The notes: generated by a model from the sequence alone, not told the origin. Shown: positions 4,957 to 61,525, numbered from the stretch's first letter. The stretch is DNA of 64,000 nt from an uncultured Candidatus Saccharibacteria bacterium (GCA_965231105.1 OZ246417.1:36094-100093), one strand, 5' to 3'. Translations and numbers: made by a program.

Positions 4957-4962
4957 TATAAT
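4957..4962 (+). promoter_or_regulatory. Candidate -10 element (TATAAT) 6 nt before ATG 4969; leaderless configuration
   Basis: The sequence ggTATAATgacggcATG has exactly 6 nt between the hexamer and the start codon, and no SD. A possible -35 TTGCTA lies at 4932-4937, with a long 19-nt spacer. Confidence 0.45.
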
Positions 4963-4968
4963 GACGGC

Positions 4969-5559
4969 ATGAACAAGAGAGCAGGGGTTATAGTGGCGAG
5001 TGTAATAGCCGTAAGCGCTTTGAGCATTTATGGGGCTCTCTTTGCGTTCAAAGACGAAAAGCCAGTATCTCAATCGTCTTCTACTATAAAAACCGCTGAG
5101 GACGCCGCTACGGGCCTTAAACTAAACTATCCTGACATCTTCCAAGCACAAGCATTAAGTGAAGCGGATCGGCAAGACAAATTTATCCTGCGTTTAACCA
5201 GCGAACAGCCGGCTATGTTAGTGTCGGTTCGCTACGAAATGGGTATGCGAGCTGCGGCAGCATTGTCTCGCCAAGAACCGCTCGCAATGATTACTGCAAA
5301 CGCAATCCGAGCCTTTCCGCAGCGGTACACGGACTATGCCCTTGTAAGTGAACGCAGCCTAGAAGTAGCGGATAAGGACGCTCACGAATTTATCTTTCGC
5401 TATACCGGTCCGAGCGGAGAAGGGGCACAACAGCGTCTTCTGATCGTCATGAAAGATGACGATACTGCCGTGTACATCTCTGCCCAAGCTCAAGAGAGCA
5501 AGTTCAATGAGCTAAACACGGCATATTTTGCCGACATCTTCTCTAGCCCTAAGTTCTAA
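4969..5559 (+). CDS. Hypothetical membrane-anchored protein (196 aa) between the two giant genes
   Basis: It has an N-terminal TM or signal anchor (GVIVASVIAVSALSIYGALFAF) followed by a roughly 160-aa soluble domain. I recognise no motif. It appears to have its own putative leaderless promoter. Confidence 0.7.
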   Translation: MNKRAGVIVASVIAVSALSIYGALFAFKDEKPVSQSSSTIKTAEDAATGLKLNYPDIFQAQALSEADRQDKFILRLTSEQPAMLVSVRYEMGMRAAAALSRQEPLAMITANAIRAFPQRYTDYALVSERSLEVADKDAHEFIFRYTGPSGEGAQQRLLIVMKDDDTAVYISAQAQESKFNELNTAYFADIFSSPKF

Positions 5560-5912
5560 AGCAAACAGAGGTAATAGAACGCCCCTGTGGAAAACTTCAT
5601 GCACTCTTTAATTATCGTTGAGTTATTTACTACTATAATTGAAGACTCTTAAAAACTCTTTTGACTAGTTTGAAAAGGACCGGTGCTGGTAAGAGATAAG
5701 TACCTAATTTGTATCTGAGGAATGTCAGATGGATACAGCCTGTTTATCAATTAATGATGTGCTAAAAACTACAAAATTAAAGTGTTTTTAACAAAAATTT
5801 ACTGTGGAAAATTGCATACAAAGTATGTTCGATTTTGGTTGTTCTACCCCATATTGCGCGTGGATAATAGTAGGAGCCTAAGTTAAAACAAACAGGCAAA
5901 ACCAATACCAAC

Positions 5913-8900
5913 ATGGTCAAATCAGCAAAACACCACCTCTATAAATTCTTTGGCATACTCTGTGCCATTTTGCTATTGTTGACCGCTGTTGCAACAAAAA
6001 TTGCACCTCAAACAGCTAGCGCTGCACCGAACTCAGTTCTAAACTTCCAGGGAAGACTCCTCGATGACAACGGTAACTTAGTACCTGATGGGTTCTACAA
6101 CATCGAGTTCAAGATCTATGACGTATCTACAAGCGGTTCTGCACTTTGGACCGAAACCTACTACGACAGCAACGGTGCTACTGCGGGCAATGACAACCGT
6201 CTTCGTGTAGTGAATGGTTACTTTAGCGTAAGCCTTGGTTCGATCACCGCCTTCAGCAACATCAACTGGGACCAGCAGCTATGGCTGACCATGAACATTG
6301 GCGGTAGCACGCAAACAGCAAGCCCAACCTACGACGGCGAAATGTCTCCACGCATTCGACTTACCGGCGTGCCGCTTGCTTTTGTTGCTAACAATGTAAA
6401 TTCTGGAAGCACGAATGCTGCCAGCACCAACTCGAACAACGTTTCTATTCAGTCCGGTAACGCAGCGGGTACAACAAGTAATTCCGGGAACATCAACATT
6501 GATGCTGGTACTGCGACCGGCACGACTGGCACAATCAACCTTGGTGCTTCAAATGCGAGCGCACTGGTATTGGGCCGCGCTGGGCTGAATGTAAGCGTAC
6601 CGGGCACGCTCAGTGTTGGTGTAGCCTCAAGTTCAACGGGTACGTTGACCTTCCGCAATGCAGGTGGTTCTGGGGGCATAGTGCTCACGACGGCGAGCCC
6701 TGGCACTTCAACATATACCATCACTTTACCGGCAGCGACAGGTACGGTTTGTTTGACGAGCGGTAACTGTGCCGGTGTTGGCGGTACGGGAGACATCTTG
6801 CAGAACGGTAATAGTTTTACCGCTGCTATGACAATTGGTACCAACGACAACTACGACGTTAACATCGAGTCCAACGGCAACACCCGCCTAACAGTGCAAG
6901 CTGACGGCGATGTTGCGTTTGATGCCGATACGTTGTTTGTTGACGCAAACAACAACCGTGTGAGTATCGGCACAACCACTACTACAAATGCTGTGCTGAC
7001 TATTGATGAGAATGCACCGAACACTGTAAATGGATCAATAGTCTATGTGACCGGCCAGTTAACATCAAACACTAATAGTCAAACAGGACTCACAGTTATT
7101 GCAGATGCTAATCCTAGCGCTGCCGGGGATGCCGAAAACTATTCTGGTGCAAACATTGGCGTAGTTAGTACTTCTGATGACTTTTCTACCGACGATCAAC
7201 TGTCGGGACTTGGTGCCTCTGCCTCATACTCAGGCACAGGCACTCTCGATAGAGCCCTCGGCGTTGGAGCTCTTGTAGGGAATATGGATGCCGGAACAAT
7301 TGATTCGGCAACTGCACTCGTAGGTGGAGTGGTAAATGTCACAGGAACTATTAATGTAGCTGCTGGGCTAGGTATAGATGTTGTGAATGTTGCCGGAACC
7401 ATTAATACGGCGGTTGGTATATCTATAGATGAGGTAGTGGAGGGCACCAATAACATTAATCTGTTTATCGGTGATCCCGATTCTTATCCCACCGGTGATT
7501 GGGCTATTTATAACGCAAGTACTGCCGATAACTACTTTGCGGGTAACTTGGCAATTGGTACCAATGTAGCTACCAACAAGCTTACTATAGAGGGTAGTGC
7601 TGGATCGAGCTCATCCATTCGCGGCAGTATTACAAACACCAACGCCGATGGCTATGCCGAATTCCAGGCCGTCAATGATGACGGCTCTTATACTGGATTT
7701 GCTACGTATGGTAGTAACTTTGCTGAAGCAGCACTTCAAAACGCTGGCCAGATTTATACTCGAGAAAAATTTATTTTCAGTGCCAATGTGGATGACGAGA
7801 CCGGTGGACCTGGTGAAATACTTTTTACGACCGGGGGTTGGGACATTGATGCAAATACGCGCCTACTTATCGATTCTGTCGGAAATATTGTCGTGGGCGT
7901 TGCAGACACTACTGGCGCACTGCTTGTTCTAGATACCAAAACTGGCTCGGGTGACCCAAGCGGTACCAACGGTGCAATGTACTACAACTCTAACAGTGGT
8001 AAATTCCGGTGTTATGAGAACAGCGCCTGGAAAGACTGTGATACGACCGGTGCTGGCGGTGTCACTACCGTCGGTACAATTGATACACAAACTCCTAGTG
8101 CTAACGGCGCGGTCATCTCTGGTAGCAGCATTTATCTCCAGAGTGCTAGTGCAACAGAGCCAGGTCTTGTGAATACCACTACTCAAAGCTTTGCCGGAAC
8201 CAAGACTTTCACGGGCGATGTCAACATCGGTGATGCAACTAGCGACACTATCACGTTCACTGGCCGCGTAAACTCTCACATTTTGCCAAGCGTGAATGAT
8301 ACCTACGACCTTGGCTCAGACAGCAACCGCTGGCGTGATCTTTACCTCGGTGGTGAAACTATCCACCTCGGCACCAGCACCAGTGATGAAGCTGCTATCA
8401 GCTACACCACCTCAACCGATTCACTTACTATTAAGAATGCCACTAACTCAACTACAGCCTTTCAGGTCCAGAACAGCAGTAACGGCAATCTCTTTAATAT
8501 TGATTCCACAAATGCCGGTGCAATTACGCTTCTTGGGAACTATAGCGGCGAAATAAGCGGCTGGACAGCAAATACCAATGTCTTTGGCGGGACTATTATG
8601 GCTCGTAAGTCGGCAGCAGCAACCATCGCTAACGGCCACATCTACGTCATGGGAGGTATTGACAGCTCATCAGGATGGCACAATGACATAGTTTACGCCA
8701 AGATAAATGCCGACGGTTCAGTTGGCACCTGGGCGAGTATTACAGGGCCGGATTATATGATTGAGTCGCAGCTCGTTTACGCCAATGGCTACTTATATGC
8801 CATTGGCGGCGGTAACAGCGGCAGCCCAAGCAGTGATGTGTGGTTTGCTAAAGTCAATGCGGACGGTACGCTGGGCACTTGGACTGCAACCACTAGCTTG

Positions 8901-11900
8901 TGGGCAGCTCGTTACGACCATGCAGCTGTTGCGTATGGCGGTTATATATATGTCTTTGCCGGTTTGGCAAGCGGCGGGAGTGCCAGTCAGTCGGTAAGGT
9001 CAGCTAAGATAAATGCCGATGGTACGCTGGCATCTTCGTGGACGTCACTAAACAACTTGCCGTATTCATCGGGCACGGACGGCTGGTCGGCAACAGTTGC
9101 AAACGGATATGTATATCTTGCAGGTGATATGAGCGGCAACCACAAACTCATCAGGGCAAAGCTAAACAGTGATGGTACGGTAGGAAGCTGGAGCAGCAGC
9201 GACAGTGCACCCACAAACGGCATCCACAATGCCGGCCTGGTAGCGATGAACGGCTACCTGTACTTTGTCGGCGGCGGTAATGGCAGCGATGTTCCGCAAT
9301 CTGCCGTAAAGTATGCGGCACTGAATGCTGATGGTTCCATCGGCAGCTGGACGACAAGCAGTAACCCGCTTACGAACGCTCGTTCCAATGCCGTAACCGT
9401 TGCACTAAACGGATACATCTATGTTATCGGCGGTAATCAAAGTGCCTTTGGCGCGCCTCAGGACACCGTTTATTACGCCTCAACTGCCCGCGTAAAAGTT
9501 GGCGGCTCCCTGGATCTTGTAAGCATGAGCGGAGAAAATCTCCACGAGGGCAATACCGGCGGCTCCATCACTGCTGGCAACGGTAACTTTGTTGGTACAC
9601 TTCAAGTCCAGGGTGCAGCAAGCTTTAACCAAGGTGTGAGTGTTAATGGCATACTGAGCGCCACTGTACTTGCGGTCAACGCCCCGTCAGGCTTTACCGG
9701 CAATATAGCCGACTTTAGGGTGGACGGAGCGCAGAAACTTCGTATTGACCAGGACGGTACCATCTTATTTGGTGCATCTGTTGACTGTAATGGTGGCTGT
9801 ATCAGGAACGGTGAGCTGAATTCATTTGGCAACCTACTTATCGAAGCATCCAGCGGTAATATCGACTTTACGGCCTTAGACGTTAAATTCTCTACTGTAA
9901 CAAGCGTACAAATCGGCACCTCAGACACTACCGGTACCTTACTGGTTCTGGACACTAAAACCGGCTCCGGTGATCCAACGGGCACCAATGGCGGCATGTA
10001 CTACAACAGCAACAGCGGCAAATTCCGCTGTTATGAAAATGGCAGCTGGAAGGATTGTATTTCCTCGGCATCAGGTCTCTCAGCCACTCTGACCGATAAC
10101 ATCGCAGACGCATGGGATGTTCAAGAAGGTACCAACAACTACATCAATATCAACACTACCAACAGCTCCGAAGCCATATCTTTCGGTAATGCTACCACTA
10201 ACCCTGACTTTAACTTCTTAGGTTCGGGTAATCTAACTGTAGATGGCGGTACTCTATTTGTCGATGGTGCCAACGATCAGGTAGGTATCGGTGCTACTAG
10301 CCTGGTAAGTAATATGCATCTGCAAGTAGGTGACGGCACTGGTAATGTGAATGTCTTATTACATGCTGGTGCATCAAGTACATCCACACTCTACTTAGAT
10401 GACAGTGGAAGCAATCGGCTGGAATTTGATAATTCTACAGATACAATCATACTGACGGCCAATGGCGGTATTGCAACAATCGATTACACCGGCCTAGCCG
10501 TTAATCGTGATTTCACCGTTCAGGGCAATACCACCCTCGGTAACGCCTCTAGTGACACCATCACATTTACGGGTCGTGTTAACTCTAACTTCCTCCCAAG
10601 TGCTAGCTCAACATACTCCATTGGTTCAACCAGTCAGAGATGGGGAAATGCATACTTCGATAACGTCATTAGCCTTGGTACCAGCTCAAGTGATGAGTCT
10701 ACGTTTACTTATAACAGTGTGGCTGATTCGCTCACTATAAAGAACGCCACCAATTCTATTGCTGCCTTCCAGATTCAGAATGCTTCGAGTGTTAATCTCT
10801 TCAATGTTGACAGCATAAACAGCCGTATTGAAGTAAACGCCGATCTTGAGGTACAAAAGAACATCAGTAGTCCGTACGGCGGTATCGGGAAGATAGGGAA
10901 CTATATAAGGGGTTCGGAAGAGCTGAGTGATACTGGGTTCTGGACACGCACGAACCTGACTTCCGTAACCGATGGCGCCACCGCACCTGATGGAGTTGCA
11001 GATGCCGATACGATTGTGAGTTCAGGCTCTGGTACGCACACGCTAACACAGTCAAACTCGCTCACAAGCAATGCTGATTACACTTTCAGTATCTGGGTCA
11101 AGACTAACAGTGGTACACAGCCAATCCAGCTTCGTATTGATGGTACAAGTTCAACCCCAACGACTGGTACGGCTGCGAGCTATACAGCCACAACCACCTG
11201 GCAGCGCTTCGTGGTAACGCAAGCCTTTACCGGTACACCAGCGACCATTATTCCAACACTTATCATTACCAATAACTCTGCTACGATCGTAGCATGGGGT
11301 GCCCAGTTGGTTATAGACAGTTCTGCCGGTGTTTACACACCAGCCATACAAGGTGATGCACAATTCAGTAACGGAGGCGTGATAAATGGTCGCCTGAACG
11401 TGTATGGCTCTATCTTCTTTGGTGACGGAGATGGTAACGGGACCTCCAGCGTTAATGATAGCGGCTTCAGCGCCATAACCGGTAACGGTTTCTACCTCTG
11501 GTCTCCAAACGGTAATGTCACACTTGAAGGTGGTTCTTCTAACAGTGTTATTTTCAGAAACATGACCACCGACATCACGACACATACGAACGAGACGCTT
11601 ACCATCGCACCGAATGGTACCGGTGATGTTGCCATAAGCATCGATGACGATACAAACCTCCAGTTGTCCGGTACGATCACAAACACTGGTAGCGCACAGG
11701 ATATTACTCTGACTCTTGGCAACGACAGTAATGCGGACACTGTTTCAGCCCTTAATATAGCAGTGACAAGTGCCAACACGGGCGATGCCGACATCTTGCG
11801 CGGTATTAACATTGCTGACCTCTCAAGCCCGCAATCAGTTACCGAATATGCCTTACAGATTGGCAGTGGCTGGGATGCTAACTTATTCTTTAACGACACC

Positions 11901-14900
11901 ACCACACAGATACAGATCGCCGGTGGCGGTACCTTCACATTTGAGGATAGTAGCGGCAATGATCTCATTACTATTGCTGATGCCGGCACCACCGGTAACG
12001 TAGGCATTACCGGCACTCTTACGGTTGCTAACATCACACCGAGTGCTAACTTGACTGTTGGTACCTCCGACACCACTGGTACCTTGCTCGTCCTTGACAC
12101 CAAGACTGGCTCCGGCGACCCAACTGGTGTAAATGGTGGTATGTACTACAATAGCAACAGCAACAAGTTCCGTTGTTACGAGAACAGTACCTGGAAAGAT
12201 TGTATTGGTGCAGGCGGTGGTGGTTCCGGCGATATAACAAACGGTGGTAATACTACTGGCGCAGCGATCACAATAGGTACCAATGACGCTTACGCACTTA
12301 ACCTTGAAACGGGCGGCACAACAGTAGCCACCTTCAGCAGTACAGGTCAGGCAGCCTTCCAGAATTCTACTGATTCAATTACTGCGTTCCAGGTCTTAAA
12401 CGCCAATGATGACGTATTGCTTAACATAGACACTGATAACGGCAGGTTTGGCTGGAATGTACCAAGCTGGGCATTGCCACAAGGCACGGCCTTCCATGTC
12501 TATTCGGCCACAAGCAGCGACAGCCACCGTGCTATCATGTTTGAAACGAATACCGTAGCAAGCTTGGCAACTGGGCAGGTTGGTACGACTTTCTGGGCAA
12601 ATGCTGATTCCAGCAGCAACATGGATTACAACGGCTACTACAGCACCAATATCCACACCAACCTCAATAAGAATGCCAACAGCACGAATGCTTCAATTAT
12701 AGCCCTCAGTTTAAGTAACTGGTTCGATGGCACCGGCACCGTAAGTGAATATAGGGGTATCGAAATAGGTGTAAGCAATGCCGATGGCGGTACTATAGGC
12801 AACTTCTACGGTATTGATGTTGTAACCTCAAGCCTAGATGCCGGCACCTTGACGAACAACTATGGCATCCGTATCCAGAACCAGACAGTAGGTACAAACG
12901 ACTACGGCTTATATATCGGTGGTGCAGACACCTACGCACTATGGGTAGACGCTGGTGTCTCACGCTTTGACGGCCAGGTTATCATCGGTGAATCTGACAC
13001 CACCGGTGTATTGCTAGTTCTCGACACCAAGACCAGCTCCGGCGACCCAACTGGTACCAACGGTGCCATGTACTACAACAGCAACAGCAACAAGTTCCGC
13101 TGTTACGAAAACGGCAGCTGGACAGACTGTATCGGTACGGGCGGCTCATCGCACTTTACCGATGCTGGTGCCTACACCTATCTGACCAGCACCACCGACG
13201 AAGTGTTGATCGGTACCAGCACCCAGAACTCAGGGGTCAAGCTGACTGTTAGCGCCAGTGGCTCGGACCCGCTCTATGTAAACGAAACCAGCGGTACAGT
13301 TGCTACGTTCCGCAACTCCAGTGGTACGGGCAGCGGCGGCATCAGTATTCAGGGTAGTAGCAGCGGCGCTGCCTTTATCGACTTCGGTGATGGCGAAAGT
13401 GCTTCAGCCGGGTTCTTGGGCTATGATAATACTGTCGAAGGCCTCTTCTTTGGCAATGGTAACGTTGGGGTTTCTTGGAGAATTGATGTTGACGGTCACT
13501 TGGTGCCTGACGATGACGACACCTACAACATCGGTTCAAGCAGCAAGCGCGTACAAGACCTATACTTAGGACCTGCATCACTACACATTGGTACCAATGG
13601 TGACGAAGGGGTATTGAGCTATGACACAACAGGGAATGGCTTCAAGTTCAATCAAAGCGTATCCGTTGTAGCAAGCGGTTATTTGAACTTCGGCGACAAC
13701 ATCGGTGCGTCTGGCTACGGTATCCGTGACAATGGCGGTATTATCCAGGTTAAAGACTTTGGTGGTAACTGGATTAACATTACTGATGGTCTTGGCGGCG
13801 GTGGTGGTGTGGGCGGTGGTGGTGTGGATGACAACGGTGTTATTCCTAATCTTGAAGGCTACACCACGAACAGCCCTGGTTCAGCTACTGAATTCTTTGA
13901 TCTCACCGTTCCTGCTGACACTGAGGATGGCGACCTTCTTCTCGCAATAATCACTTCTCGTGACTGTTGTTCGAGTGTGGGTACGCATGAGACACCAGTA
14001 GGCTGGAGACAAGAAAATTCCACCGTTACACATAATGGTGGCTTCGGTGATCATATGAGGACAACCGTATATAGCAGAATCGCGAGCGGTAATACTCCAG
14101 GCTCAACAATCTCATTCGACTACGACGATAACAACGACTGGACCGTGAATGCTCGAGGTGCCATGCTTCGCATCTCTGGCGCAAGTGCAGTTACTCCTGT
14201 AGATGCGATAGCAGTAAACACCAACCTATCGGATGAAGACTTGATAGTGCCTGCTCTGACTACCATGAGGGACAACACCCTTGGTATTGCGTTCATGGGA
14301 GCATGGGACGATCCTATCAATGGCGTGACTGTTCCTAACTGGGACAATGTAACCCACTACGATAATAATTATCTAAAGATTATGGAGCGTGATCTGCCAG
14401 ATGATCAGACATATACCGAATCGGACAGTGGGGATGATTATGCATGGACCCAGATGACCATAGCACTAGCTATTCGTCCTGTTGAAACAGGTGGTTTCTA
14501 CGCCGGTGAAGCTATATTCCAAGATGACTTCAACGACAACTCAGTGAATGCTACTAAGTGGGACCAAACTACGGCTTCAAGTGGTACTATTAGCGAAACA
14601 GGCCAACAGATGGTACTCGGTTTGCCGACTAATGGTAGTGGCTCGGCAAGCTTACAATCTGATGCTGGCTATGATATTCGTGATCGTTGGGCAGGGGTAG
14701 AGTTAGTAAGTGCTAACCATCCTGAATACCAAAGCTATAGTGGCCTCTTCCTTAATGAGAATGGTGGTGATGATTACCTTGCGATATTTATTAGTGAGAA
14801 TAATCTTATGGGTCTATTCGATTATGGTGGTGGCGCAACAACTGTATTTAGTACTGGTTACAACTCAAGCGTTCATAAGTTCCTCAGAATTCGTGAATCT

Positions 14901-22028: not shown

Positions 22029-22058
22029 ATCTATTCTTTAAGTATAGGCTATAAAGCC

Positions 22059-22610: not shown

Positions 22611-22631
22611 ATCTATAAGATATTAAACCAC

Positions 22632-35691: not shown

Positions 35692-35740
35692 AGTCAGCGG
35701 GGTATTATACACATCTGTTTAATAGAGATCAAGAGCCTCT

Positions 35741-35768: not shown

Positions 35769-35774
35769 GGGGAT

Positions 35775-39506: not shown

Positions 39507-39528
39507 AATACGGTATACTACTCTTTAC

Positions 39529-44327: not shown

Positions 44328-44340
44328 ATAGGCTAGAATA

Positions 44341-45882: not shown

Positions 45883-45900
45883 TTACTGTATACTGGCTTC

Positions 45901-48801: not shown

Positions 48802-48827
48802 TCTAAGACAAAAATATCCCTTATGCT

Positions 48828-49457
48828 ATGATGCTAGGAATGAACTATATCTTTGACTTTGACGGAACGCTCGTTGATAGTTTGCCGGCTTTTATCGCGG
48901 TCTTTAATAAGAATATTCGTGGCGGTAGTAATCCGCTTACTGCCGCAGAAATCGATCGATTTAGAGCCATGCCATCCCGAAAGGCCATTAGCAAACTTGG
49001 TGTTCGGTGGTGGCAGGTGCCGAAGTTAATTCTCCAGGGTCTCCCGGATTTTCGAGCCCTTCTGCCTGATCTTAAGCCCTTTGATGATATCCCAGAGGTT
49101 TTGAAAGAGCTTCATGATCGGGGAGACAGGTTATTTATCGTTACCTCTAATACTCACGATAGTGTAGAAAAGTTTCTAAAACTTCACGGCCTCGAAGGTT
49201 ATTTTACGGGGATGGATACGGCATCGGGAATTTTTAATAAGTCAAAGCATATTCGTAACATGATCAAGGTATACAAGTTAAAGCGAAAAGAAACTGTCTA
49301 CGTGGGAGATGAAACACGGGATATACAGGCAGGAAAGTTAGCGCGCATTAAGGTCGTATCGGTAACATGGGGATTTAATCACGCCAGTATTTTAAGAAAG
49401 CACCGTCCCCATTATCTTATTGAGCGACCACAGGAACTGACCTCCATAAAACGATAG
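48828..49457 (+). CDS. HAD-superfamily hydrolase (phosphatase-like)
   Basis: Motif I is IFDFDGTLVDS, motif II is IVTSN and motif IV is YVGDETRDIQAG. The start is ambiguous among three nearby ATGs (48828, 48831 and 48840). Confidence 0.75.
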   Translation: MMLGMNYIFDFDGTLVDSLPAFIAVFNKNIRGGSNPLTAAEIDRFRAMPSRKAISKLGVRWWQVPKLILQGLPDFRALLPDLKPFDDIPEVLKELHDRGDRLFIVTSNTHDSVEKFLKLHGLEGYFTGMDTASGIFNKSKHIRNMIKVYKLKRKETVYVGDETRDIQAGKLARIKVVSVTWGFNHASILRKHRPHYLIERPQELTSIKR

Positions 49458-50273: not shown

Positions 50274-50275
50274 AT

Positions 50276-50836: not shown

Positions 50837-50866
50837 AATCCTCAGAGATGATATAGTAGCTGAAGA

Positions 50867-51559
50867 ATGAGACTACATCGCTTTTATGTTGCGCCGAAAA
50901 CTGCCGAGCTGACCCATAGCTTTTGGCTACACGACGAAGCCTTGCGCAATCAGTGGACACGCGTGTTGCGCTACCGCGAGGGTGATCAGGTTGTGCTCTT
51001 TGATGGGGTGAGTGAAGACCGTCTGTATAAAATCGCTAAAATTGAACCAGATGCCATTCATCTTGAAATGGTGACGCAGTTCGAACGCAAACTGCCCCAT
51101 AAACATGTCTATCTTTTTTGGTCGCTTTTAAAGAAAGATAAGAATGACTGGGTAATACAGAAGGCAACGGAGCTTGGCGTAAGTAACTTTGTACCAATTA
51201 TTGCTGACCGCAGTGAAAAAACAGGCTTTAACCTTGAGCGGGCAGAGAAAATAGCGATTGAAGCAGCTGAACAGTGCGGTCGTAGCGATATTCCCCACAT
51301 TCGTGAACCGCTTACTATTGAAGAAGCTATCCAGGAATACAAAGATAAAGTCACATTGCTGGTTTGTGATGAGCAAAATGAAACACAAGTTTCTGAAAGT
51401 GATAAGCCGGTAGGGATCTTTATTGGGCCAGAAGGTGGATGGGCAGAACAAGAGCTAACCCAGTTTAAAAATGCCGGACTTGGTTCACTGCATCTAGGGC
51501 AAATGACGCTGAGAGCTGAGACTGCAGCCGTCGCAGCAACCACAAAACTGTTACAATAG
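50867..51559 (+). CDS. rsmE: 16S rRNA (uracil1498-N3)-methyltransferase RsmE
   Basis: The sequence begins MRLHRFYV, with a PUA-like N-terminus. QKATELGV and the SPOUT knot motif IGPEGGWAEQE are present. TGaTATAGT (50849-50857) lies 9 nt before the ATG. Confidence 0.8.
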   Translation: MRLHRFYVAPKTAELTHSFWLHDEALRNQWTRVLRYREGDQVVLFDGVSEDRLYKIAKIEPDAIHLEMVTQFERKLPHKHVYLFWSLLKKDKNDWVIQKATELGVSNFVPIIADRSEKTGFNLERAEKIAIEAAEQCGRSDIPHIREPLTIEEAIQEYKDKVTLLVCDEQNETQVSESDKPVGIFIGPEGGWAEQELTQFKNAGLGSLHLGQMTLRAETAAVAATTKLLQ

Positions 51560-51566
51560 AAGTCTA

Positions 51567-52361
51567 ATGGCAAACTATTGGAGGGAACGAAGCATACCGT
51601 ATAAACCTGGGCAAAAAACGCCCTTTAAATTGTCTCGCTCTAAAATCGAGCTTTTTATGCAATGCCCTCGCTGTTTCTGGCTTGATACGCGACTCAAGAT
51701 AACTCGTCCCAGTAGTCCGCCGTTTAATATCAACAAAGCTATTGATGAGCTTTTTAAGAAAGAGTTTGATTCCTATCGCAGTAAAGGTGAGCCACATCCT
51801 TTAATGGTAGAGTTTGGTATTAATGCCATTCCTTTTGCTCACGATAAACTGGGCGAATGGCGTGAGAATTTTGTGGGCGTAGCCACTATACATAAACCTA
51901 CCAACCTACATATTTTCGGGGCGGTGGATGATTTGTGGCAAGACAACGAGGGTAAGGTCGTGGTAGTGGATTATAAGGCGACTGCTAAAGATAAAGAGGT
52001 GAGTATCGATAGTGAGTGGCAGATTGCTTATAAGCGCCAAATGGAAGTGTATCAATGGTTGCTCAGGCAAAACGGTCTTACGGTGAGCGACACGGGTTAT
52101 TTTGTTTATACCAATGGCCGAATGGATCTCGATGGATTCTTTAATAAGATAGAGTTTAAGACAAAGATCATCCCCTATACCGGTAATGTTGCTTGGGTTG
52201 AGCCGACCATAAAAAAAATGAAACAATGCCTTGAGGGCGATATGCCACCGGTCGGTAAAAGCGCTATGGGTGGCGATTGTGAATTCTGCGCCTACGCAAA
52301 AGCACGTACCGAATTAACAGTAAACGCACTCAATGGGAGAAGGGTGAAACATGCAAAGTAG
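51567..52361 (+). CDS. PD-(D/E)XK nuclease family protein with Cys clusters (Cas4/AddB-nuclease-like)
   Basis: The N-terminus has FMQCPRCFW and the C-terminus has GGDCEFCAY (a C-x2-C ... C-x2-C arrangement). The core is GAVDDLW ... VVVVDYKAT ... Q..VY (the D...D/E-x-K pattern). TGtTACAAT (51549-51557) lies 9 nt before the ATG. Confidence 0.6.
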   Translation: MANYWRERSIPYKPGQKTPFKLSRSKIELFMQCPRCFWLDTRLKITRPSSPPFNINKAIDELFKKEFDSYRSKGEPHPLMVEFGINAIPFAHDKLGEWRENFVGVATIHKPTNLHIFGAVDDLWQDNEGKVVVVDYKATAKDKEVSIDSEWQIAYKRQMEVYQWLLRQNGLTVSDTGYFVYTNGRMDLDGFFNKIEFKTKIIPYTGNVAWVEPTIKKMKQCLEGDMPPVGKSAMGGDCEFCAYAKARTELTVNALNGRRVKHAK

Positions 52362-53070
52362 ACACATAGAATTTGAGACAAACGGACTAACACTGCGAGG
52401 CGATTTATTTGAGCCCACCTCAGATCAGAAAAATATAGCTTGTCTCTTTTTGCACGGGTGGACAGGCAGGCCTAATATACGTGCCGCAGAAAGAACGGCA
52501 AACGTAGGTTACTATGCTCTAACATTTAGTTTTCCTGGGCATAATAATAGTGAAGGCGATATTACCAAGCTTACGCGCAAAGAAGCGCTGGAGAGTGCAG
52601 TGGCTGCCTATGATTTATTTAAAAGTTCCATTCCCGAGGGTACGGAGATTGTAGCAATTGGTAATAGCTTCGGGGGTTACATAGCTCCTCTTTTAACGAC
52701 ACAGCGGAAAGTTCGGGCGCTCTCGATTCGCGTACCAGCAGATTACCCTGATGACAAATTTGACCTGCCGCAAATGGGCCAGGGTCATGATGACCCAGAA
52801 GTGCTTCGTTGGCGGCATCGCTTGCATGAATCTTCGGAAACAATGGCCTTAAGAGCGGTGCATGAGTTTACTGGTGAACTACAGATAATCGAAGCCAAGC
52901 TAGATGATCTTGTTCCTCACGAAACGGTGCATAGCTATGCTAATGCCTTTGCTGATCCAGAAAAGCTCGAATACCATTTAATGGAAGATTGGCCGCATAG
53001 TCTCTCTGATGACGAAACTAGAAATGACCAGTTTCAAGAACTTCTCTTAACCTGGCTAAGCAGGCTATAA
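52351..53070 (+). CDS. Alpha/beta-fold hydrolase
   Basis: The oxyanion region is FLHGWTG and the nucleophile elbow is GNSFGG. A C-terminal D...H (EDWPHS) is consistent with a Ser-Asp-His triad. Confidence 0.65.
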   Translation: MQSRHIEFETNGLTLRGDLFEPTSDQKNIACLFLHGWTGRPNIRAAERTANVGYYALTFSFPGHNNSEGDITKLTRKEALESAVAAYDLFKSSIPEGTEIVAIGNSFGGYIAPLLTTQRKVRALSIRVPADYPDDKFDLPQMGQGHDDPEVLRWRHRLHESSETMALRAVHEFTGELQIIEAKLDDLVPHETVHSYANAFADPEKLEYHLMEDWPHSLSDDETRNDQFQELLLTWLSRL

Positions 53071-53077
53071 TAAACTT

Positions 53078-54385
53078 ATGCTAGATATCCAAGTTATCCG
53101 AGACAATCCCGAAGCTGTCAGCGAAAAGGCAAAACAAAAAGGTTATCCCGTTGATATTCAGGAGCTTTTACGCCTCGATGGAGAGCGTCGTGAGTTATTG
53201 CAGCAAGTCGAAGCCCTGCGTGCTCAACGTAATGTAATTTCAAAATCTCCAAGTCCCTCGCCTTCGCCCAGTCCTTCTCCGGAAGCAATAGAAGAGGGTA
53301 AACAAATTAAAGTTGAGCTTGCTGAACGAGAAACCTATCTCGGCGATATAGAGGCTCAGTTTGATAAGCTTCTTAAGCTTGTGCCTAACATGCCGCTCGA
53401 TGATGTGCCGGTTGGAGCATCAGAAGATGAGAATAAAGTTGAATATGAAAAAGGGGATAAGCCTCGCTTTGATTACGAACCGAAGAATCATGCAGAGCTT
53501 GCCGAACAGCGTGGTTGGCTTGATAAAGTCCGTGCCGCTAAAGTTTCCGGCAGCCGGTTCGCCTACATAAAAGGGGATTTAGTAAAGCTGCAGTTTGCGC
53601 TGGTTAACTGGATAACTGACATCCTCACCGATGAAAAGGTCTTACGGCACATCGCCGACGGAGCTGGCCTTAAGGAAGTTTCCAGTAAGCCCTTTACACC
53701 TATTCTGCCGCCACTCATGCTCAAGACCGATGTCTATGATGCTATGGATCGACTTGAGCCACGAGATGATCGTTATAAGATTGAGGGTGAAGATCTATGG
53801 CTCCAGGGAAGCGCAGAGCACGTACTCGGCAGTATGCACACCGGTGAGGTGTTTGCAGCCGAGCATCTGCCACTTCGTTACTTAGGTTTTGCAACCAGCT
53901 TTAGAAAAGAAGCAGGCACATATGGAAAAGACATGGAAGGCCTTATCCGTATGCACCAGTTCGATAAGCTCGAGATGGAAAGCTTCACCGAAGCCAAGGA
54001 TGGTTTAAGCGAACATTTCTTCCTGATTGCAATCCAGGAATATATCTTACAGCAGCTTGAACTGCCATACCGTAAACTGCGTAAGTGTACGTTCGATATC
54101 GGTAAACCCAACGCTCGGGGTGTCGATATGGAGGTTTGGCTACCAGGGCAGAATAAGTACCGAGAGACGCACACTGCCGACTATATGACCGATTATCAAG
54201 CACGCAGACTTAAGACTCGTGTTAAAAATGGCGATGTTATTTCATTGGTTCACACCAATGACGCTACAGCATTGGCGCTTGGTCGTGGTATGGTCGCAGT
54301 TATCGAGAACTATCAGTCTGCAGACGGCAGCGTGAGGGTGCCGGAAGTACTAAAGCCCTATCTAGGAGGAAGGGAAAAGCTCTAA
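53078..54385 (+). CDS. serS: Seryl-tRNA synthetase with an (SP)6 insertion in the coiled-coil arm
   Basis: The sequence begins MLDIQVIRDNPE. Class II motif 2 is FRKEAGTYGKDMEGLIRMHQFDKLE and motif 3 is GRGMVAVIENYQ. SKSPSPSPSPSPSPEA lies at 53246-53281. A TATAAT (53066-53071) lies 6 nt before the ATG. Confidence 0.95.
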   Translation: MLDIQVIRDNPEAVSEKAKQKGYPVDIQELLRLDGERRELLQQVEALRAQRNVISKSPSPSPSPSPSPEAIEEGKQIKVELAERETYLGDIEAQFDKLLKLVPNMPLDDVPVGASEDENKVEYEKGDKPRFDYEPKNHAELAEQRGWLDKVRAAKVSGSRFAYIKGDLVKLQFALVNWITDILTDEKVLRHIADGAGLKEVSSKPFTPILPPLMLKTDVYDAMDRLEPRDDRYKIEGEDLWLQGSAEHVLGSMHTGEVFAAEHLPLRYLGFATSFRKEAGTYGKDMEGLIRMHQFDKLEMESFTEAKDGLSEHFFLIAIQEYILQQLELPYRKLRKCTFDIGKPNARGVDMEVWLPGQNKYRETHTADYMTDYQARRLKTRVKNGDVISLVHTNDATALALGRGMVAVIENYQSADGSVRVPEVLKPYLGGREKL

Positions 54386-54869: not shown

Positions 54870-57476
54870 ATGAAAAAGGTTTTTAAACGTATCCTGGGCG
54901 ACCCTCAAGTGAAAACCATTAAGCGCTTGCAAAAGCGTGTAGCCGAAGTTAATAAACTCGAGCCGAAGTATAAAAAACTATCCGATGCCAAACTTCGAGC
55001 GCAGACTGATGAACTTAAAAAACGACTGCAAAAAGAATCGCTCGACGCCATTTTGCCCGATGCCTTTGCGTTAGTGCGTGAAGCAGCCTTACGAACCTTA
55101 AAACAGCGACATTTTGATGTGCAGCTTATTGGTGGCATGGTGTTACACGAAGGTAATGTGGCTGAAATGAAAACTGGTGAAGGTAAGACGCTGGTAGCGA
55201 CTTTACCGGTCTATCTCAATGCGCTCACAGGTAAAGGTGTGCATGTGGTAACGGTAAACGATTACCTAGCTCAGCGTGACGCCGGTTGGATGGGGCAAAT
55301 CTATACATTCTTAGGTTTAAGTGTAGGCGTGATTATCCCTGATCACTCTTTCCTGTATGATCCTGACTATACCAATAAGGACCACGATGATGAACGTTTT
55401 AGGCACTTGCGGCCAGCAACTCGCCAGGAGGCCTACCAGGCGGATATTACCTATGGTACTAATAACGAATATGGCTTCGATTACTTACGCGATAACATGG
55501 TGCGCGAAACTGATCAGCTTCGCCAGCGCGATTTGCACTATGCGATCGTTGACGAAGTAGACTCCATCCTTATTGATGAAGCTCGTACGCCACTTATTAT
55601 TTCAGCACCAGCTGTAGCGAGCGGAGCAAGCTATAGCCAGTTTGCTCGAGTGGTCCGAAACCTTAAGCCCGAACATTATGAAGTCGATGAAAAACGCCGC
55701 AGTGTTATTTTGACCGACGAAGGTGTTGAGAAGGTAGAAAAAATCCTTGGCATTAAAAGTCTCTATTCTACCGAGAATATTCGTAACATTTACCACCTCG
55801 AACAAGCGCTCAAAGCAGAGCTACTCTTTAAGCGCGATAAAGACTATGTAGTGAGTACCGACGGTGAAGTGGTTATTGTGGATCAGTTCACCGGTCGTAT
55901 GTTGAAGGGTCGTCGCTATAATGAAGGTCTTCACCAGGCGATTGAGGCGAAGGAAGGTGTTGAAGTCCAAGAAGAATCCATGACGCTGGCGACCATCTCC
56001 TTCCAGAACTACTTCCGTTTGTATGAAAAACTTTCCGGTATGACCGGTACGGCTATGACGGAAAGTGAAGAATTCCATCAGATCTATAAGCTTGACGTCG
56101 TAGAAATTCCACCAAACCGCAAGGTAGTTCGCGAAGACCGCCCGGACCGCATTTATAAAACTGAAAAAGGTAAGTTTAACGCCATCGTTAAAGAAGTCTC
56201 AGGGCTCCATAAAAAAGGTCAGCCGGTGCTTATCGGTACTGTGTCCATCGAAAAGAACGAAGAGCTTGGAAGCTTACTGAAAAAAGCTGGCATTCCGCAC
56301 CAGATTTTAAACGCTAAGAATAATGAACGTGAGGCAGCGATTGTTGCCAAGGCGGGAGAAAAAGGTGCCGTCACGCTGGCTACTAACATCGCTGGCCGTG
56401 GTACTGACATTGTCTTAGATGAAACCGCTAAAAAACTCGGCGGTCTATTCGTACTCGGTTCAGAGCGACATGAATCACGCCGCATTGATAACCAGTTGCG
56501 TGGACGTTCCGGACGTCAGGGTGACCCTGGTGCAACGCAGTTCTTTGTGAGTACTGAAGACGAGCTTATGCGTATTTTCGGTGGTGAGCGTATTGGTGCT
56601 GTCATGCAACGCCTGAAAGTCGATGACACAACACCAATTGAGAATCGCTTGATTAGTAGATCACTCGAATCTGCTCAGAAGAAAGTGGAAGGCTTTAACT
56701 TCGACCAGCGTAAAAACGTTGTCCAATACGACGACGTTATGAACCGTCATCGCAAGGCAATTTATGCTATGCGTCGAGAAATTTTATTACAAGCTACCAT
56801 CGCTCCTCGTATTAAAGAATTTATTCGTGAAGAAGTGGCGCAGCTCGTGGCATCACCCGAATCGACAACTGATAAATTCGAGACAATTTTAACGGAAGTG
56901 TTTCCATTTGATGAGCCAACGCTGGATCGTTTATTCGATACCGAATCAAGCAAATTTGAAGATGTGTTAAGGACTGAAGCCGAAGAGCTCTACGCTGCAC
57001 GGGAAGAATCATTTGGCGATGAGGTAATGCGTAAAGTTGAGCGCGATGCGTATTTACAGATTCTCGATACCTTATGGATGGAGCACCTTGAGAACATGGA
57101 TCACCTCCGTGAAGGTATCCACTGGTTGAGCATTGGTCAGCGTGATCCACTGGTTGAATATCGTCGCCAATCTCAGATCCTGTTTGCTCAGATGCAGCAA
57201 ACACTGAGACATGATGTCTTACGCACACTCTTCCATGCGCAACCCGTTGATGAGGATGAACTCGATGAAGCCACCGAAACAGAATTAACGCGTGCTGCTC
57301 GACAGTCCGTTGATAACGCCAACCGCATATTAACAGGCGACGACTTTAATGAAGAAGATTTTAAACCTCAGAACCAAACGGGCTCAAACACAAAGGTAAA
57401 ATCAACGAAGAGTAAAAAGCAAAAGCAACGTAAAGCCGAGAGACAGCGAAAGAAGAAAGGGAAGCGAAAGAAGTAA
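54870..57476 (+). CDS. secA: Preprotein translocase ATPase SecA
   Basis: Walker A is MKTGEGKTLVATLP and the DEAD-like motif is IVDEVDSILIDEARTPLIIS. TGMTGTA and LATNIAGRGTDI are present. The C-terminus is a polybasic tail (KSKKQKQRKAERQRKKKGKRKK) instead of the usual Cys/His zinc-binding end. I prefer ATG 54870 over TTG 54867, with the SD aagggag upstream. Confidence 0.95.
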   Translation: MKKVFKRILGDPQVKTIKRLQKRVAEVNKLEPKYKKLSDAKLRAQTDELKKRLQKESLDAILPDAFALVREAALRTLKQRHFDVQLIGGMVLHEGNVAEMKTGEGKTLVATLPVYLNALTGKGVHVVTVNDYLAQRDAGWMGQIYTFLGLSVGVIIPDHSFLYDPDYTNKDHDDERFRHLRPATRQEAYQADITYGTNNEYGFDYLRDNMVRETDQLRQRDLHYAIVDEVDSILIDEARTPLIISAPAVASGASYSQFARVVRNLKPEHYEVDEKRRSVILTDEGVEKVEKILGIKSLYSTENIRNIYHLEQALKAELLFKRDKDYVVSTDGEVVIVDQFTGRMLKGRRYNEGLHQAIEAKEGVEVQEESMTLATISFQNYFRLYEKLSGMTGTAMTESEEFHQIYKLDVVEIPPNRKVVREDRPDRIYKTEKGKFNAIVKEVSGLHKKGQPVLIGTVSIEKNEELGSLLKKAGIPHQILNAKNNEREAAIVAKAGEKGAVTLATNIAGRGTDIVLDETAKKLGGLFVLGSERHESRRIDNQLRGRSGRQGDPGATQFFVSTEDELMRIFGGERIGAVMQRLKVDDTTPIENRLISRSLESAQKKVEGFNFDQRKNVVQYDDVMNRHRKAIYAMRREILLQATIAPRIKEFIREEVAQLVASPESTTDKFETILTEVFPFDEPTLDRLFDTESSKFEDVLRTEAEELYAAREESFGDEVMRKVERDAYLQILDTLWMEHLENMDHLREGIHWLSIGQRDPLVEYRRQSQILFAQMQQTLRHDVLRTLFHAQPVDEDELDEATETELTRAARQSVDNANRILTGDDFNEEDFKPQNQTGSNTKVKSTKSKKQKQRKAERQRKKKGKRKK

Positions 57477-57495
57477 TTCCTTTCGCACTTTCTTC

Positions 57496-58791: not shown

Positions 58792-58813
58792 AGTCCCCAG
58801 GTATACTAATCAT

Positions 58814-59899
58814 ATGGAACCGCTCAAAAAACAAATTCAAGAGCAGCTGGCAGTTATCGAGCAGGCAACAGTGCGCATTAATCTTTCCGAACTAGAAAAG
58901 AAACTCGAAAACCTTACCACAGAAATTGGACAACCAGACTTCTGGCAAGACAACCAAAAAGCAGGCGCTGTTATGAAAGAGCAGGCTGCTTTGCAAGCAC
59001 GAGTAGCGCCATGGCAAACATTGCTTTCGGAGGCAAAAGAACTCAGCGAACTTGCAGAACTTGGGGACAGCCAATTAGAAGATGAGCTCAAAGCACAATT
59101 AATAGCTCTTACGGAACACTTTGATCAGCTTAAGGGAGAGCTGCGTTTTAATCAGCCGCACGACGAATCAAGCGCAATTGTAAGTATATACGCTGGAGCA
59201 GGTGGCACTGATGCACAGGATTGGGCACAGATGTTGCTGCGTATGTATGTGCGGTGGGCGGAGAAGCACAACTATGAAGTCGTAACCATTGCTGAGTCGG
59301 CGGGTGAAGAAGCCGGGCTAAAGAGTGTTACCTTTGAGGTAAACGGAGCATTGGCATACGGCAAGTTAAAAGGTGAACATGGGGTGCATCGTTTGGTGCG
59401 TTTAAGTCCTTTTAACGCCGATAATTTACGGCAAACCTCGTTTGCCAAAGTTGAAGTTTTACCAAGAATAGATACACCCGATGAAGTGGTAATTGATGAA
59501 AAAGAACTTAAGATTGATGTCTACCGTTCAGGCGGTCATGGTGGGCAGAGTGTTAATACCACTGACTCAGCGGTACGTATTACGCACATTCCAACCGGTA
59601 TTACTGTGGCTATCCAAAACGAACGCTCACAACTGCAAAACCGTGAAACAGCTATGACCATTCTGCGCTCTCGTTTGGTACAGCTACAAATGGAGCAGCA
59701 TCTTGAAAAACTCAGCGACCTTAAAGGCATTAACCAATCAGCAGAGTGGGGCAATCAAATCCGCAGCTACGTACTTCATCCCTATAAAATGGTGAAGGAT
59801 CTTCGTACGAGTCATGAAACAAGCGATACCGAAGGTGTGTTGGATGGTGATCTCGACGGTTTTATAAACGCATATATTGACAGTGCTATCAAAGCCTAG
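58814..59899 (+). CDS. prfB: Peptide chain release factor 2, encoded without the programmed +1 frameshift
   Basis: The start MEPLKKQI at 58814 sits 6 nt after TATACT (58802-58807). The upstream in-frame extension to 58715 overlaps the M16 gene. The SPF region is RLSPFNADNLRQTSF and the GGQ motif is [26 protein letters not shown]. The reading frame is continuous: CTT TCC GAA occurs where frameshifting genes carry CTT TGA C. Confidence 0.95.
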   Translation: MEPLKKQIQEQLAVIEQATVRINLSELEKKLENLTTEIGQPDFWQDNQKAGAVMKEQAALQARVAPWQTLLSEAKELSELAELGDSQLEDELKAQLIALTEHFDQLKGELRFNQPHDESSAIVSIYAGAGGTDAQDWAQMLLRMYVRWAEKHNYEVVTIAESAGEEAGLKSVTFEVNGALAYGKLKGEHGVHRLVRLSPFNADNLRQTSFAKVEVLPRIDTPDEVVIDEKELKIDVYRSGGHGGQSVNTTDSAVRITHIPTGITVAIQNERSQLQNRETAMTILRSRLVQLQMEQHLEKLSDLKGINQSAEWGNQIRSYVLHPYKMVKDLRTSHETSDTEGVLDGDLDGFINAYIDSAIKA

Positions 59900-59907
59900 A
59901 GCCTCTT

Positions 59908-59916
59908 TGTTATACT
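59908..59916 (+). promoter_or_regulatory. Extended -10 element TGtTATACT, 7 nt before ATG 59924
   Basis: The sequence is tttGTtatact followed by tatgctt and ATGaaacga. It favours the second ATG (MKRFVALL...) as a leaderless start. Confidence 0.45.
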
Positions 59917-59923
59917 TATGCTT

Positions 59924-60799
59924 ATGAAACGATTTGTGGCGCTATTGAGCGTCCTGATGCTCCCCCTCATATGGGTGAGTGCACCAGTCTCGGCTGCGGC
60001 GTGTGAGAGTGGTGCGTATGGTACCGCCACCATTGCGATACCGACACTGCCTGCAACCGGAACCTATACGATATGGACGCGCATGCAGGCACCCAATGCA
60101 GAGAATAATCAGTATCAACTTGAGATAAATGGTGAAGCATGTTTTACAGTTGGCGGTAGCGGTGCACCCGCAAATCAGTGGATCTGGGTAGCATCCCAGA
60201 ACGGGAATGCAAGTAGCAAAACAGAATTTAATTTTACCCATACTACCGGTAATCAGGCACGCCTCATTGGTATTGCTCCAGGGGTAAAAGTAGATCGTAT
60301 TTTAGTGTTGCAATCAGACTGTGTCCCGACGGGGACCGGTGATAATTGTCGTCTTGGAAACGCAGTAGTTATCCAAGGGAGTAGCGGTACAACCGCACAG
60401 ACATTGCAGCAGCCCGTAAGCGGCAAGATTTTACCGGCAAGTATTCTTTCTGATAACCCTTCGTCGGTAAAGCGAGTGGTGTACTTAGTTGATGGCCAAA
60501 AATTGCAAGAGGCAGAAGGAGCGGTACCGCTCGACACAACACTTTTAAGCAATGGTGCACATATTGTGACGGCACGGGTAACCACTACAGACGATAAGAC
60601 CACTGACTACGCAACAAACTTAACGGTCAATAATGTCGAAACATTCATGAGTCCGTTGTATAGATGGCTTCGCCTGAACAAGCGTGCACTTGCATATGTG
60701 GGAGGAGCTTTTGGAATCCTCTCCTTTGTACTGCTTATTTTCTGGTTTATTAGAGCAATACACCTCGAACGTCAACGGCTTAAATTCCACGGCTTCTAA
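59924..60799 (+). CDS. Surface protein: CBM-like domain (paralog of the 30166 gene), a Big-like domain and a C-terminal TM anchor
   Basis: The signal peptide is FVALLSVLMLPLIWVSAPVSA/AA. The CBM-like domain reads TYTIWTRMQAPN..ANQWIWVASQ..GNQARLIGIAPGVKVDRILVL. The Big-like domain reads VKRVVYLVDGQ..LSNGAHIVTARVTT. The TM is YVGGAFGILSFVLLIFWFI. The track start is 59918. Confidence 0.75.
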   Translation: MKRFVALLSVLMLPLIWVSAPVSAAACESGAYGTATIAIPTLPATGTYTIWTRMQAPNAENNQYQLEINGEACFTVGGSGAPANQWIWVASQNGNASSKTEFNFTHTTGNQARLIGIAPGVKVDRILVLQSDCVPTGTGDNCRLGNAVVIQGSSGTTAQTLQQPVSGKILPASILSDNPSSVKRVVYLVDGQKLQEAEGAVPLDTTLLSNGAHIVTARVTTTDDKTTDYATNLTVNNVETFMSPLYRWLRLNKRALAYVGGAFGILSFVLLIFWFIRAIHLERQRLKFHGF

Positions 60800-60822
60800 G
60801 AAGCCGTAAAAGATAAGCGCTA

Positions 60823-60831
60823 TGCTATAAT
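60823..60831 (+). promoter_or_regulatory. Extended -10 element TGcTATAAT, 7 nt before the ftsE GTG start
   Basis: The sequence is taTGcTATAATcgttagcGTG, with no SD between the element and the start. Confidence 0.45.
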
Positions 60832-60838
60832 CGTTAGC

Positions 60839-61525
60839 GTGATACTTCTCGATCGTGTGAGTAAACGTTACAGCCGCAAAAGTGATGCGACCGCGCTGGA
60901 GCGTATCTCTCTCCATATTGAACCAAAAGAATTTGTGATTATTGTTGGCCCCTCGGGAGCAGGCAAATCCACGCTGCTTAAACTTCTGACGCGGGAGGAA
61001 AAACCTACCAGCGGGAAGATTATCGTTGGCGGTATTGATTATGAACATTTGAAGGATAAGGATGTGCCGCGTTTGCGTCGCCGCATTGGCGTGGTATTTC
61101 AAGACTTTAAGCTTCTTCCTAATAAGACCGTGTTTGAAAACGTAGCCTTCGCATTAGAAATTATTGGTATCAGTACCAAAGAAATTCGTCACACCGTTCC
61201 TCGGGTCCTTGAGATTGTTGGCCTCAAGGGCAAAGAAAAAAGTATGCCCATGGAACTCTCCGGTGGTGAACGCCAGCGTGTGGCAATTGCTCGTGCCATT
61301 GTCCGCCAGCCCAAGATTCTTATCGCCGATGAGCCAACCGGTAACCTTGATCCGAAGCATGCATGGGATGTCATCAGAGTTTTAGAAAAAATTAACCGTT
61401 ACGGCACAACCGTGCTTCTTACCACGCATAACCAAGAAATTGTGAATAAGTTAAAACGCCGTGTTATTACCATTGAAGGGGGCAAAGTAGTAGCGGACCG
61501 TTCCAACGGAGGATACCGGGCGTGA
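60839..61525 (+). CDS. ftsE: Cell-division ABC ATPase FtsE
   Basis: It uses a GTG start and begins [10 protein letters not shown]. Walker A is GPSGAGKST, the signature motif is [14 protein letters not shown] and Walker B is [11 protein letters not shown]. ftsX is directly coupled downstream. Confidence 0.9.

Follow-up and report, generated by a model that had tools for sequence, protein, structure and literature searches.

Candidate leaderless and near-leaderless genes behind extended -10 promoter motifs in a Saccharibacteria genome segment and its relatives

In a 64,000-nt stretch of DNA from an uncultured Candidatus Saccharibacteria bacterium (GCA_965231105.1 OZ246417.1:36094-100093; hereafter the window), TATAAT-like hexamers recur a few nucleotides before the start codons of many genes, and an initial annotation proposed that they are the -10 elements of widespread leaderless or near-leaderless mRNAs. 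Here, we analysed this arrangement in the window and in its relatives, and found it supported computationally, with the start of transcription itself inferred from the sequence together with comparative evidence. We consider it very likely that the hexamers are the -10 elements of sigma-70-type promoters, of the extended -10 class and weak at -35, which would give rise to mRNAs with no leader or almost none. The motif, its geometry, its enrichment, its dependence on gene context and its conservation can all be read directly from the DNA, and they are best explained by a lineage-wide habit of Saccharibacteria that would involve roughly a quarter of genes and about half of recognisable promoters.

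All 13 combinations of hexamer, spacer and start codon listed in the initial annotation are present in the window at the positions claimed for them. None of their short spacers contains a GGAG, GAGG or AGGA core of the Shine-Dalgarno (SD) type (the site before 35775 has GGGG only), in agreement with the claim that these genes lack an SD, and canonical TGn precedes the hexamer at 4 of the 13 sites, the same ones that had been marked as extended. The list itself was less satisfactory, since the site at 35775 is weak and at least three further sites (starts 44350, 48840 and, on the minus strand, 48792) had been missed. Among 50 curated gene starts of the window, the strict hexamer TA[TC]A[ACG]T followed by a spacer of 6-12 nt precedes 12; when the sequences upstream of these starts were shuffled 2000 times, it did so for 0.9 on average and never for more than 5. 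The loose form TANNNT precedes 18 of the 50, as compared with 8.2 +/- 2.5 in the shuffles.

The comparative set was obtained by searching the serS protein of the window against one genome per prokaryotic species, which yielded 80 loci (1.38 Mb), all of them Saccharibacteria or Saccharimonadia metagenome-assembled genomes or similar contigs, with a best amino-acid identity of 76%. Genome-scale statistics were calculated on the window and these loci together, i.e., on about 1260 open reading frames (ORFs) of at least 100 codons, with home-made gene calls (longest ORF combined with a choice of the start by signal). As each locus is the neighbourhood of serS (+/-10 kb), and so the surroundings of a single gene, the same gene families are sampled repeatedly, and the sites at 4969, 22028, 22610 and 35775 lie outside these neighbourhoods and thus outside all ortholog comparisons. 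Even with crude longest-ORF starts, strict hexamers were found before 73 per 1000 starts at a spacer of 6 nt, 42 at 7 nt and 15-25 at 8-11 nt, over a background of about 5 per 1000 in the rest of the upstream region; before ATGs within genes the rate was about 1 per 1000. The comparison of hexamer-to-start distances with a control, which the initial annotation had suggested, accordingly reveals a strong enrichment at 6-11 nt from starts.

When the first candidate start bearing either signal was taken as the start of each gene, and the same procedure was applied to internal decoy positions, 317 of 1258 genes (25%) were of the leaderless type, as compared with 15 of 589 decoys (2.5%). A looser definition of the hexamer gave 34% of genes and 12% of decoys. 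By the same choice of starts, 461 of the 1258 genes (37%) were of the SD type, whereas the decoys gave 13.6%. The 317 leaderless-type genes carry the hexamer and no GGAG, GAGG or AGGA core at 3-11 nt, and only 12 genes carry both signals. Hence, the proposal that two modes of initiation coexist holds in this larger set (SD-type 37% vs 14%, beside the leaderless type), and the four SD-led genes that had been named as examples in the window are correct as well. The leaderless fraction shows no dependence on base composition, with a median of 26% over 69 loci that span 39-58% GC and a correlation with GC of 0.02.

A further test made no use of annotated or chosen starts. The extended motif TGnTAYAVT was found at 467 places, both strands included. 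For 200 of them, the nearest ATG downstream is at a distance of 5-12 nt (3 cases at 5 nt, 64 at 6 and 44 at 7), and in 177 of the 200 it begins an ORF of 80 codons or more. With three permuted versions of the motif as decoys, only 2-5 such cases arose among 275-338 occurrences (1-2%, as compared with 38%). The hard limit at 6 nt would be expected if transcription starts about 7 nt past the hexamer and the AUG must lie on the transcript.

The arrangement is also conserved, and in a gene-specific manner. At serS, a strict hexamer stands 5-12 nt before the start in 75 of 80 orthologs, and a TANNNT in 80 of 80; the upstream DNA cannot be aligned across species, yet TATAAT, TATACT or TACAAT is found 6-9 nt before the ATG at essentially every locus, often preceded by TGn and with no SD. 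The leaderless-type arrangement is kept in 16 of 21 orthologs of the PD-(D/E)XK nuclease gene and in 32 of 48 of prfB, and at rpmE the hexamer lies at 10-11 nt in all four orthologs. Other genes are essentially never of this type, namely hpf (2/74), secA (0/72), greA (0/34) and the gene of a 431-aa protein at 57496 (0/65). Between these extremes, the mode switches between leaderless-type and SD-type among Saccharibacteria orthologs, as seen for rseP (see below) and for the ABC ATPase, of which 30 of 65 orthologs are leaderless-type and, according to the definition of the SD core applied, 21-30 SD-type.

Features on the translation side differ between the two classes of genes, in the direction to be expected for leaderless translation. 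Start codons are ATG in 93% of the leaderless-type and 78% of the SD-type genes, and the mean minimum free energy of the first 36 nt is -2.6 kcal/mol in leaderless-type genes, -3.4 in SD genes and -5.4 in internal segments.

The alternative that survives best accepts the hexamers as real promoters and regards them as auxiliary: most protein would be made from read-through polycistronic mRNAs, and the downstream gene would be translated through termination-reinitiation or 70S scanning across a gap of 15-40 nt. Gene context offers it some ground. The leaderless type accounts for 15% of genes at co-directional gaps of 0-14 nt, rises to 51% at 15-39 nt and amounts to about 30% at larger gaps (29% at gaps of at least 100 nt). 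Gaps of 15-39 nt are too small for a terminator, so read-through transcripts must coexist with any transcript begun at the hexamer; besides, no convincing plus-strand terminator between the packed genes emerged from a scan of 44-64 kb. However, the arrangement is also found at divergent starts (23%) and at the gaps of at least 100 nt, where no upstream co-directional transcript arrives. Moreover, the bias to ATG, the low structure of the 5' end and the sharp onset at 6 nt fit a start codon at the 5' terminus and not reinitiation, while the conservation among orthologs of serS (75-80 of 80) speaks for a primary role. Taken together, we regard a merely auxiliary role as unlikely.

The identity of the motif bears on a second alternative, in which the TATAAT-like sequence acts in RNA, as a non-SD initiation element on leadered mRNAs (an A/U-rich site bound by the ribosome or by S1, as in "group B" of GeneMarkS-2). 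The distance of 6-11 nt indeed overlaps the range of SD spacing, in which the end of GGAG peaks at 5-8 nt before the start. Nevertheless, the aligned sites agree with the extended -10 consensus of sigma-70 at every base, even at positions that the search had left free, with T in 63% at -15, G in 75% at -14 and T in 56% at -17. The TG extension accompanies 56% of start-proximal hexamers and 32% of those standing 14-74 nt before an SD gene, but only 5% of those within coding DNA. The same motif also recurs 20-50 nt upstream of SD-led genes; in the window, TATACT or TACAAT lies 20-34 nt upstream of the SD-led starts 17674, 27756, 29049, 38226, 43450 and 49518. An element acting in translation should stand before all genes alike, but genes that overlap their upstream neighbour or are internal to an operon are essentially devoid of the motif and carry a GGAGG-type SD: among overlapping genes 1% are leaderless-type and 48% SD-type, and within operon pairs the arrangement marks ftsE (42/66 orthologs) and not ftsX (0/30), the ABC ATPase (30/65) and not its overlapping permease (0/47). 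Finally, SD spacers are distributed in a bell shape over 3-12 nt, unlike the spacer of the hexamers with its hard lower limit of 6 nt. We therefore find an RNA-level element highly improbable.

The -35 region of the promoters proposed here is weak and only marginally enriched, as only 63 of the 317 sites show at least 4 of 6 matches to TTGACA at 16-18 nt, as compared with 35-40 at shifted control positions. A generic two-hexamer scan for -35 and -10 elements over 44-64 kb returned 25 promoter-like sites where 32 were expected, and none at the claimed sites; given the weak -35, such a scan misses promoters of this kind and is uninformative about them. About 100 of the 467-477 extended -10 motifs fall within coding interiors and roughly half of the rest are start-proximal, so that leaderless units may make up about half of all recognisable promoters.

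Chance, in the form of AT-rich spacers full of TAA and TAG stops that would by themselves yield TANNNT near starts, has practically nothing left to recommend it: TANNNT is common (8.2 of 50 genes in the shuffled upstream regions) and two hexamers of the window do overlap stop codons, but the strict hexamer is 13-fold over shuffles in the window and about tenfold over decoys in 1.4 Mb, permuted motifs and GC content speak against it, conservation follows particular genes, and only 28 of 200 co-directional sites at distances of up to 100 nt have the hexamer or its TGn on a stop codon or the end of a coding sequence, with 2 further cases wholly within the upstream coding sequence. The shuffle, decoy, GC and conservation controls thus refute an explanation by composition.

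Several points nonetheless weigh against the reading of the hexamers as promoters of leaderless mRNAs, or limit it. The gene calls are home-made, and families around one gene were sampled repeatedly. For rseP, an SD-like core stands before 6 of the 8 orthologs sampled and just one is leaderless-type, and the arrangement at rsmE recurs in 0 of 6 sampled orthologs. Many sites lie in gaps of 15-39 nt, where upstream read-through must also exist and may contribute. The generic scan picked up none of the promoters, whose strength is thus unproven. Two individual sites of the window, 35775 (TGTAAT) and 22610 (TAATAT), are weak. Lastly, the only transcription start sites (TSSs) that we found for any of the Saccharibacteria, those of TM7x, had been derived from RNA-seq coverage and are said to lack precision (PMC12641261).

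We envisage the following course of events. Housekeeping promoters of the sigma-70 type, mostly of the extended -10 form (T-n-TGn-TAYAMT) with little or no -35, would direct RNA polymerase to start about 7 nt past the hexamer, and a spacer of 6-7 nt would thus make the A of the start codon, or a base beside it, the +1 and produce a truly leaderless mRNA. Spacers of 9-12 nt would leave a leader of 2-6 nt, too short for an SD contact; a purine is usually present 7-8 nt past the hexamer in the classes with spacers of 9-11 nt, which would set their leaders at 1-4 nt. On the leaderless mRNAs, the ribosome would bind the 5'-terminal AUG directly. Beside these, there would be mRNAs with short SD-bearing leaders (about 15-45 nt) and internal operon genes led by an SD. 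What we infer is thus the start of transcription at the hexamers and the leaderless translation of the mRNAs that it yields.

In the window, spacers of 6-7 nt precede eight starts. On the plus strand, TATAAT and 6 nt precede ATG 4969 (4957-4971), which opens a protein of 196 aa with a hydrophobic N-terminus and no Pfam match, in strictly leaderless geometry; TATACT and 6 nt precede ATG 45901 (45889-45903) of the ABC ATPase gene, which leads the ATPase-permease pair; and TATAAT and 6 nt precede ATG 53078 of serS (53066-53080). Further downstream, TATACT and 6 nt are found before ATG 58814 (58802-58816) of prfB, encoding RF2; TGtTATACT and 7 nt before ATG 59924 (59908-59926) of a 291-aa protein with no Pfam match, for which an alternative in-frame ATG at 59918, only 1 nt past the hexamer, would sit upstream of the expected +1; and TGcTATAAT and 7 nt before GTG 60839 (60823-60841) of ftsE, the FtsE-type ABC gene that leads ftsEX and whose orthologs start with ATG in 57 cases and GTG in 9. 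The remaining two were absent from the initial list: TGcTATGAT and 7 nt before ATG 48840 of a HAD hydrolase (MNYIFDFDGTL; 48824-48842, plus strand, hexamer 48827-48832), and TAGAAT and 7 nt before ATG 48792 of msrA (48790-48805, minus strand, hexamer 48800-48805). These two genes form a back-to-back pair of divergent leaderless-type promoters within a 47-nt spacer, with hexamers 21 bp apart (48790-48842). It may be added that prfB (58814-59899) is a single uninterrupted ORF, with neither a short upstream frame nor a +1 programmed frameshift site.

Seven starts follow the hexamer at 9-12 nt. On the plus strand these are the near-leaderless ATG 39529 of the M50/RseP protease gene (TATACT and 9 nt; 39514-39531), ATG 50867 of rsmE (TGaTATAGT and 9 nt; 50849-50869), ATG 51567 of the PD-(D/E)XK nuclease gene (TGtTACAAT and 9 nt; 51549-51569) and ATG 44350 of the class I lysyl-tRNA synthetase gene lysS (PF01921; TAGAAT and 10 nt; 44334-44352), the last of which had also been overlooked. 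On the minus strand, TTGATC, 17 nt, TATAAT and 12 nt precede ATG 35691 of rpmE, encoding L31 (35689-35732), with an expected leader of about 5-6 nt; TAATAT, a weaker hexamer that conforms to TANNNT only, and 9 nt precede ATG 22610 (22608-22625) of a 183-aa protein; and TATACT and 12 nt precede the near-leaderless ATG 22028 (22026-22046) of a 278-aa protein, the latter two proteins having no Pfam match. There is finally the plus-strand TGTAAT, 6 nt before ATG 35775 (35763-35777) of a 124-aa ORF with no Pfam match. This site is weak or ambiguous because its hexamer lacks the near-invariant A at position 2; TATAAA/TATATA 18-20 nt upstream are alternative hexamers, and GGGG stands right beside the ATG. 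Pfam agrees with the gene names given earlier for M50/RseP, the ABC ATPase, RsmE, the PD-(D/E)XK nuclease, RF2, the FtsE-like ABC protein and L31.

Several of the promoters had been said to lie inside the end of the preceding gene. This applies to two of them, which overlap its stop codon: the TATAAT of serS (53066-53071) spans the upstream TAA (53068-53070), as had been noted, and the TACAAT before 51567 shares its final T with the upstream TAG, as the first base of that stop. The other hexamers are intergenic.

The suggestion that the signal helps in choosing start codons, made among others for rpmE and prfB, is backed by ortholog N-termini or the starts of Pfam profiles, which agree with the promoter-proximal starts of rpmE, prfB, lysS and the nuclease gene. 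Read from ATG 35691, the protein matches the L31 profile from its first residue onwards, which supports this codon over the upstream GTG at 35712 chosen as the longest ORF. In lysS, the longest-ORF ATG at 44341 lies only 1 nt past the hexamer, and both Pfam and orthologs favour ATG 44350, which is probably the real start. Longest-ORF starts are likewise misplaced for prfB (58715 instead of 58814), the HAD hydrolase (48828 instead of 48840) and msrA (48801 instead of 48792). An exact look-up of the serS protein led to one independent 5.1-kb Logan contig with an identical serS (ERR2586215_343185), on which the public call of the nuclease gene (L081 332-1036) begins at the equivalent of window position 51657, i.e., 30 codons past ATG 51567; the 30 N-terminal residues read from ATG 51567 align in 21 of 22 orthologs.

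Apart from these genes, the window displays a positive GC skew almost throughout and about 85% of its genes on the plus strand. The 196-aa gene at 4969 sits between two giant ORFs, one at 11-4951 (at least 1646 aa, with no Pfam match, possibly extending past the start of the window) and the other at 5913-17612 (3899 aa, with Kelch repeats around residues 950-1190), which are probably surface proteins of an episymbiont. A 9-bp hairpin (GCGAAAGG...CCTTTCGC) at 57464-57486, between the 869-aa secA-like gene and the gene at 57496, is among the few terminator-like structures between co-directional genes at 44-64 kb; the terminator scan flagged it on the minus strand, and a T-rich run also follows it on the plus strand. 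Rfam and tRNA scans of the 64-kb window returned no family match and no tRNA gene, so that the window holds no 16S 3' end in which an anti-SD could be inspected.

Looking beyond the loci studied, we tentatively speculate that Saccharibacteria, and perhaps the candidate phyla radiation (CPR)/Patescibacteria, might transcribe much of their reduced genomes nearly gene by gene from -35-less extended -10 promoters placed in 15-40 nt spacers or on the preceding stop codon. About half of all promoters would give leaderless mRNAs, a share that would rival that of Deinococcus and exceed that of most Actinobacteria, and the mode would flip readily among orthologs. Initiation without a leader would then belong to the core traits of a lineage whose ribosome is pared down, either as a character ancestral to Terrabacteria or as an adaptation that its leaderless-rich actinobacterial hosts have in common with it. 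Our findings would add a CPR lineage to the phyla in which leaderless initiation is a major mode, and would bear on the ancestry of leaderless translation as well as on the layout of transcription in a very compact genome without operon-length spacers. In practical terms, standard gene callers can misplace leaderless starts in these genomes, the nuclease call being an example. Saccharibacteria have only recently become genetically tractable, with cassettes that borrow the tuf and rpsJ promoters (PMC10187176), and the 16-nt module TGnTATAAT-N6-ATG would constitute a minimal native expression signal.

The leaderless arrangement has apparently not yet been described for the class Saccharibacteria. 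Among the papers that we searched, none ascribes leaderless mRNAs to the Saccharibacteria (TM7) or to CPR/Patescibacteria; where these terms stood together, it was in reference lists or in an unrelated usage. A preprint on the TM7x transcriptome makes no mention of TSSs, promoters or untranslated regions.

The arrangement is nevertheless known in kind, and is not a new mechanism. In Mycobacterium tuberculosis and Mycobacterium smegmatis, a large minority of genes reportedly have their TSS at the start codon, an AUG or GUG, with a -10 element just upstream and no SD. The genes described here resemble them in the hexamer just before the start codon, in the lack of an SD and in the use of both AUG and GUG; the mycobacterial cases, however, were shown by differential RNA sequencing and ribosome profiling in high-GC Actinobacteria, while ours are sequence-based and come from the reduced, 46% GC genome of an episymbiont. 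With the sigma-A promoters of Gram-positive bacteria, in which a "-16 region" (TRTG) is found, the promoters share the T at -17, the TG at -15/-14 and a -35 that is weak or can be dispensed with. The extended -10 is a class of promoter and not a mode of translation, and in model organisms such promoters normally precede leadered mRNAs. An mRNA with a 5'-terminal AUG and no SD, as proposed here, is also made from the phage lambda promoter PRM for cI, a single-gene curiosity in E. coli. The same kind of start is found on the leaderless mRNAs of archaea, which depend on a different transcription machinery and have their TATA box about 22-26 nt upstream, according to the outline of group D in the GeneMarkS-2 report (PMC6028130). 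As for the extent of the phenomenon, Deinococcus deserti is described as having 60% of its mRNAs with a TSS at or very near the AUG or GUG (de Groot et al. 2014, PMC4007540); this large share, mapped experimentally and verified proteogenomically in a different phylum, has its likeness here in the roughly half of extended -10 motifs outside coding interiors that are start-proximal. Leaderless transcriptomes mapped by experiment also exist for the two mycobacteria (Cortes et al. 2013, PMC3898074; Shell et al. 2015, PMC4633059), and the arrangement agrees with these as well. The closest parallel is group C of GeneMarkS-2, outlined as genomes with a Pribnow box 6-8 nt before the first gene of an operon, an SD before the other genes and 25-50% of operons predicted to be leaderless, which was reported mainly for Actinobacteria (90%) and Deinococcus-Thermus (97%) (Lomsadze et al. 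2018, PMC6028130); Saccharibacteria or CPR are not named among its members in the main text. The window and its relatives match this outline point by point, with a -10 box localised near starts, no SD in between, restriction to first genes, a preference for AUG and an unstructured 5' end. They differ from it in that the candidate promoters are TGn-extended, have almost no -35 and are squeezed into the 15-39 nt spacers of a very compact genome.

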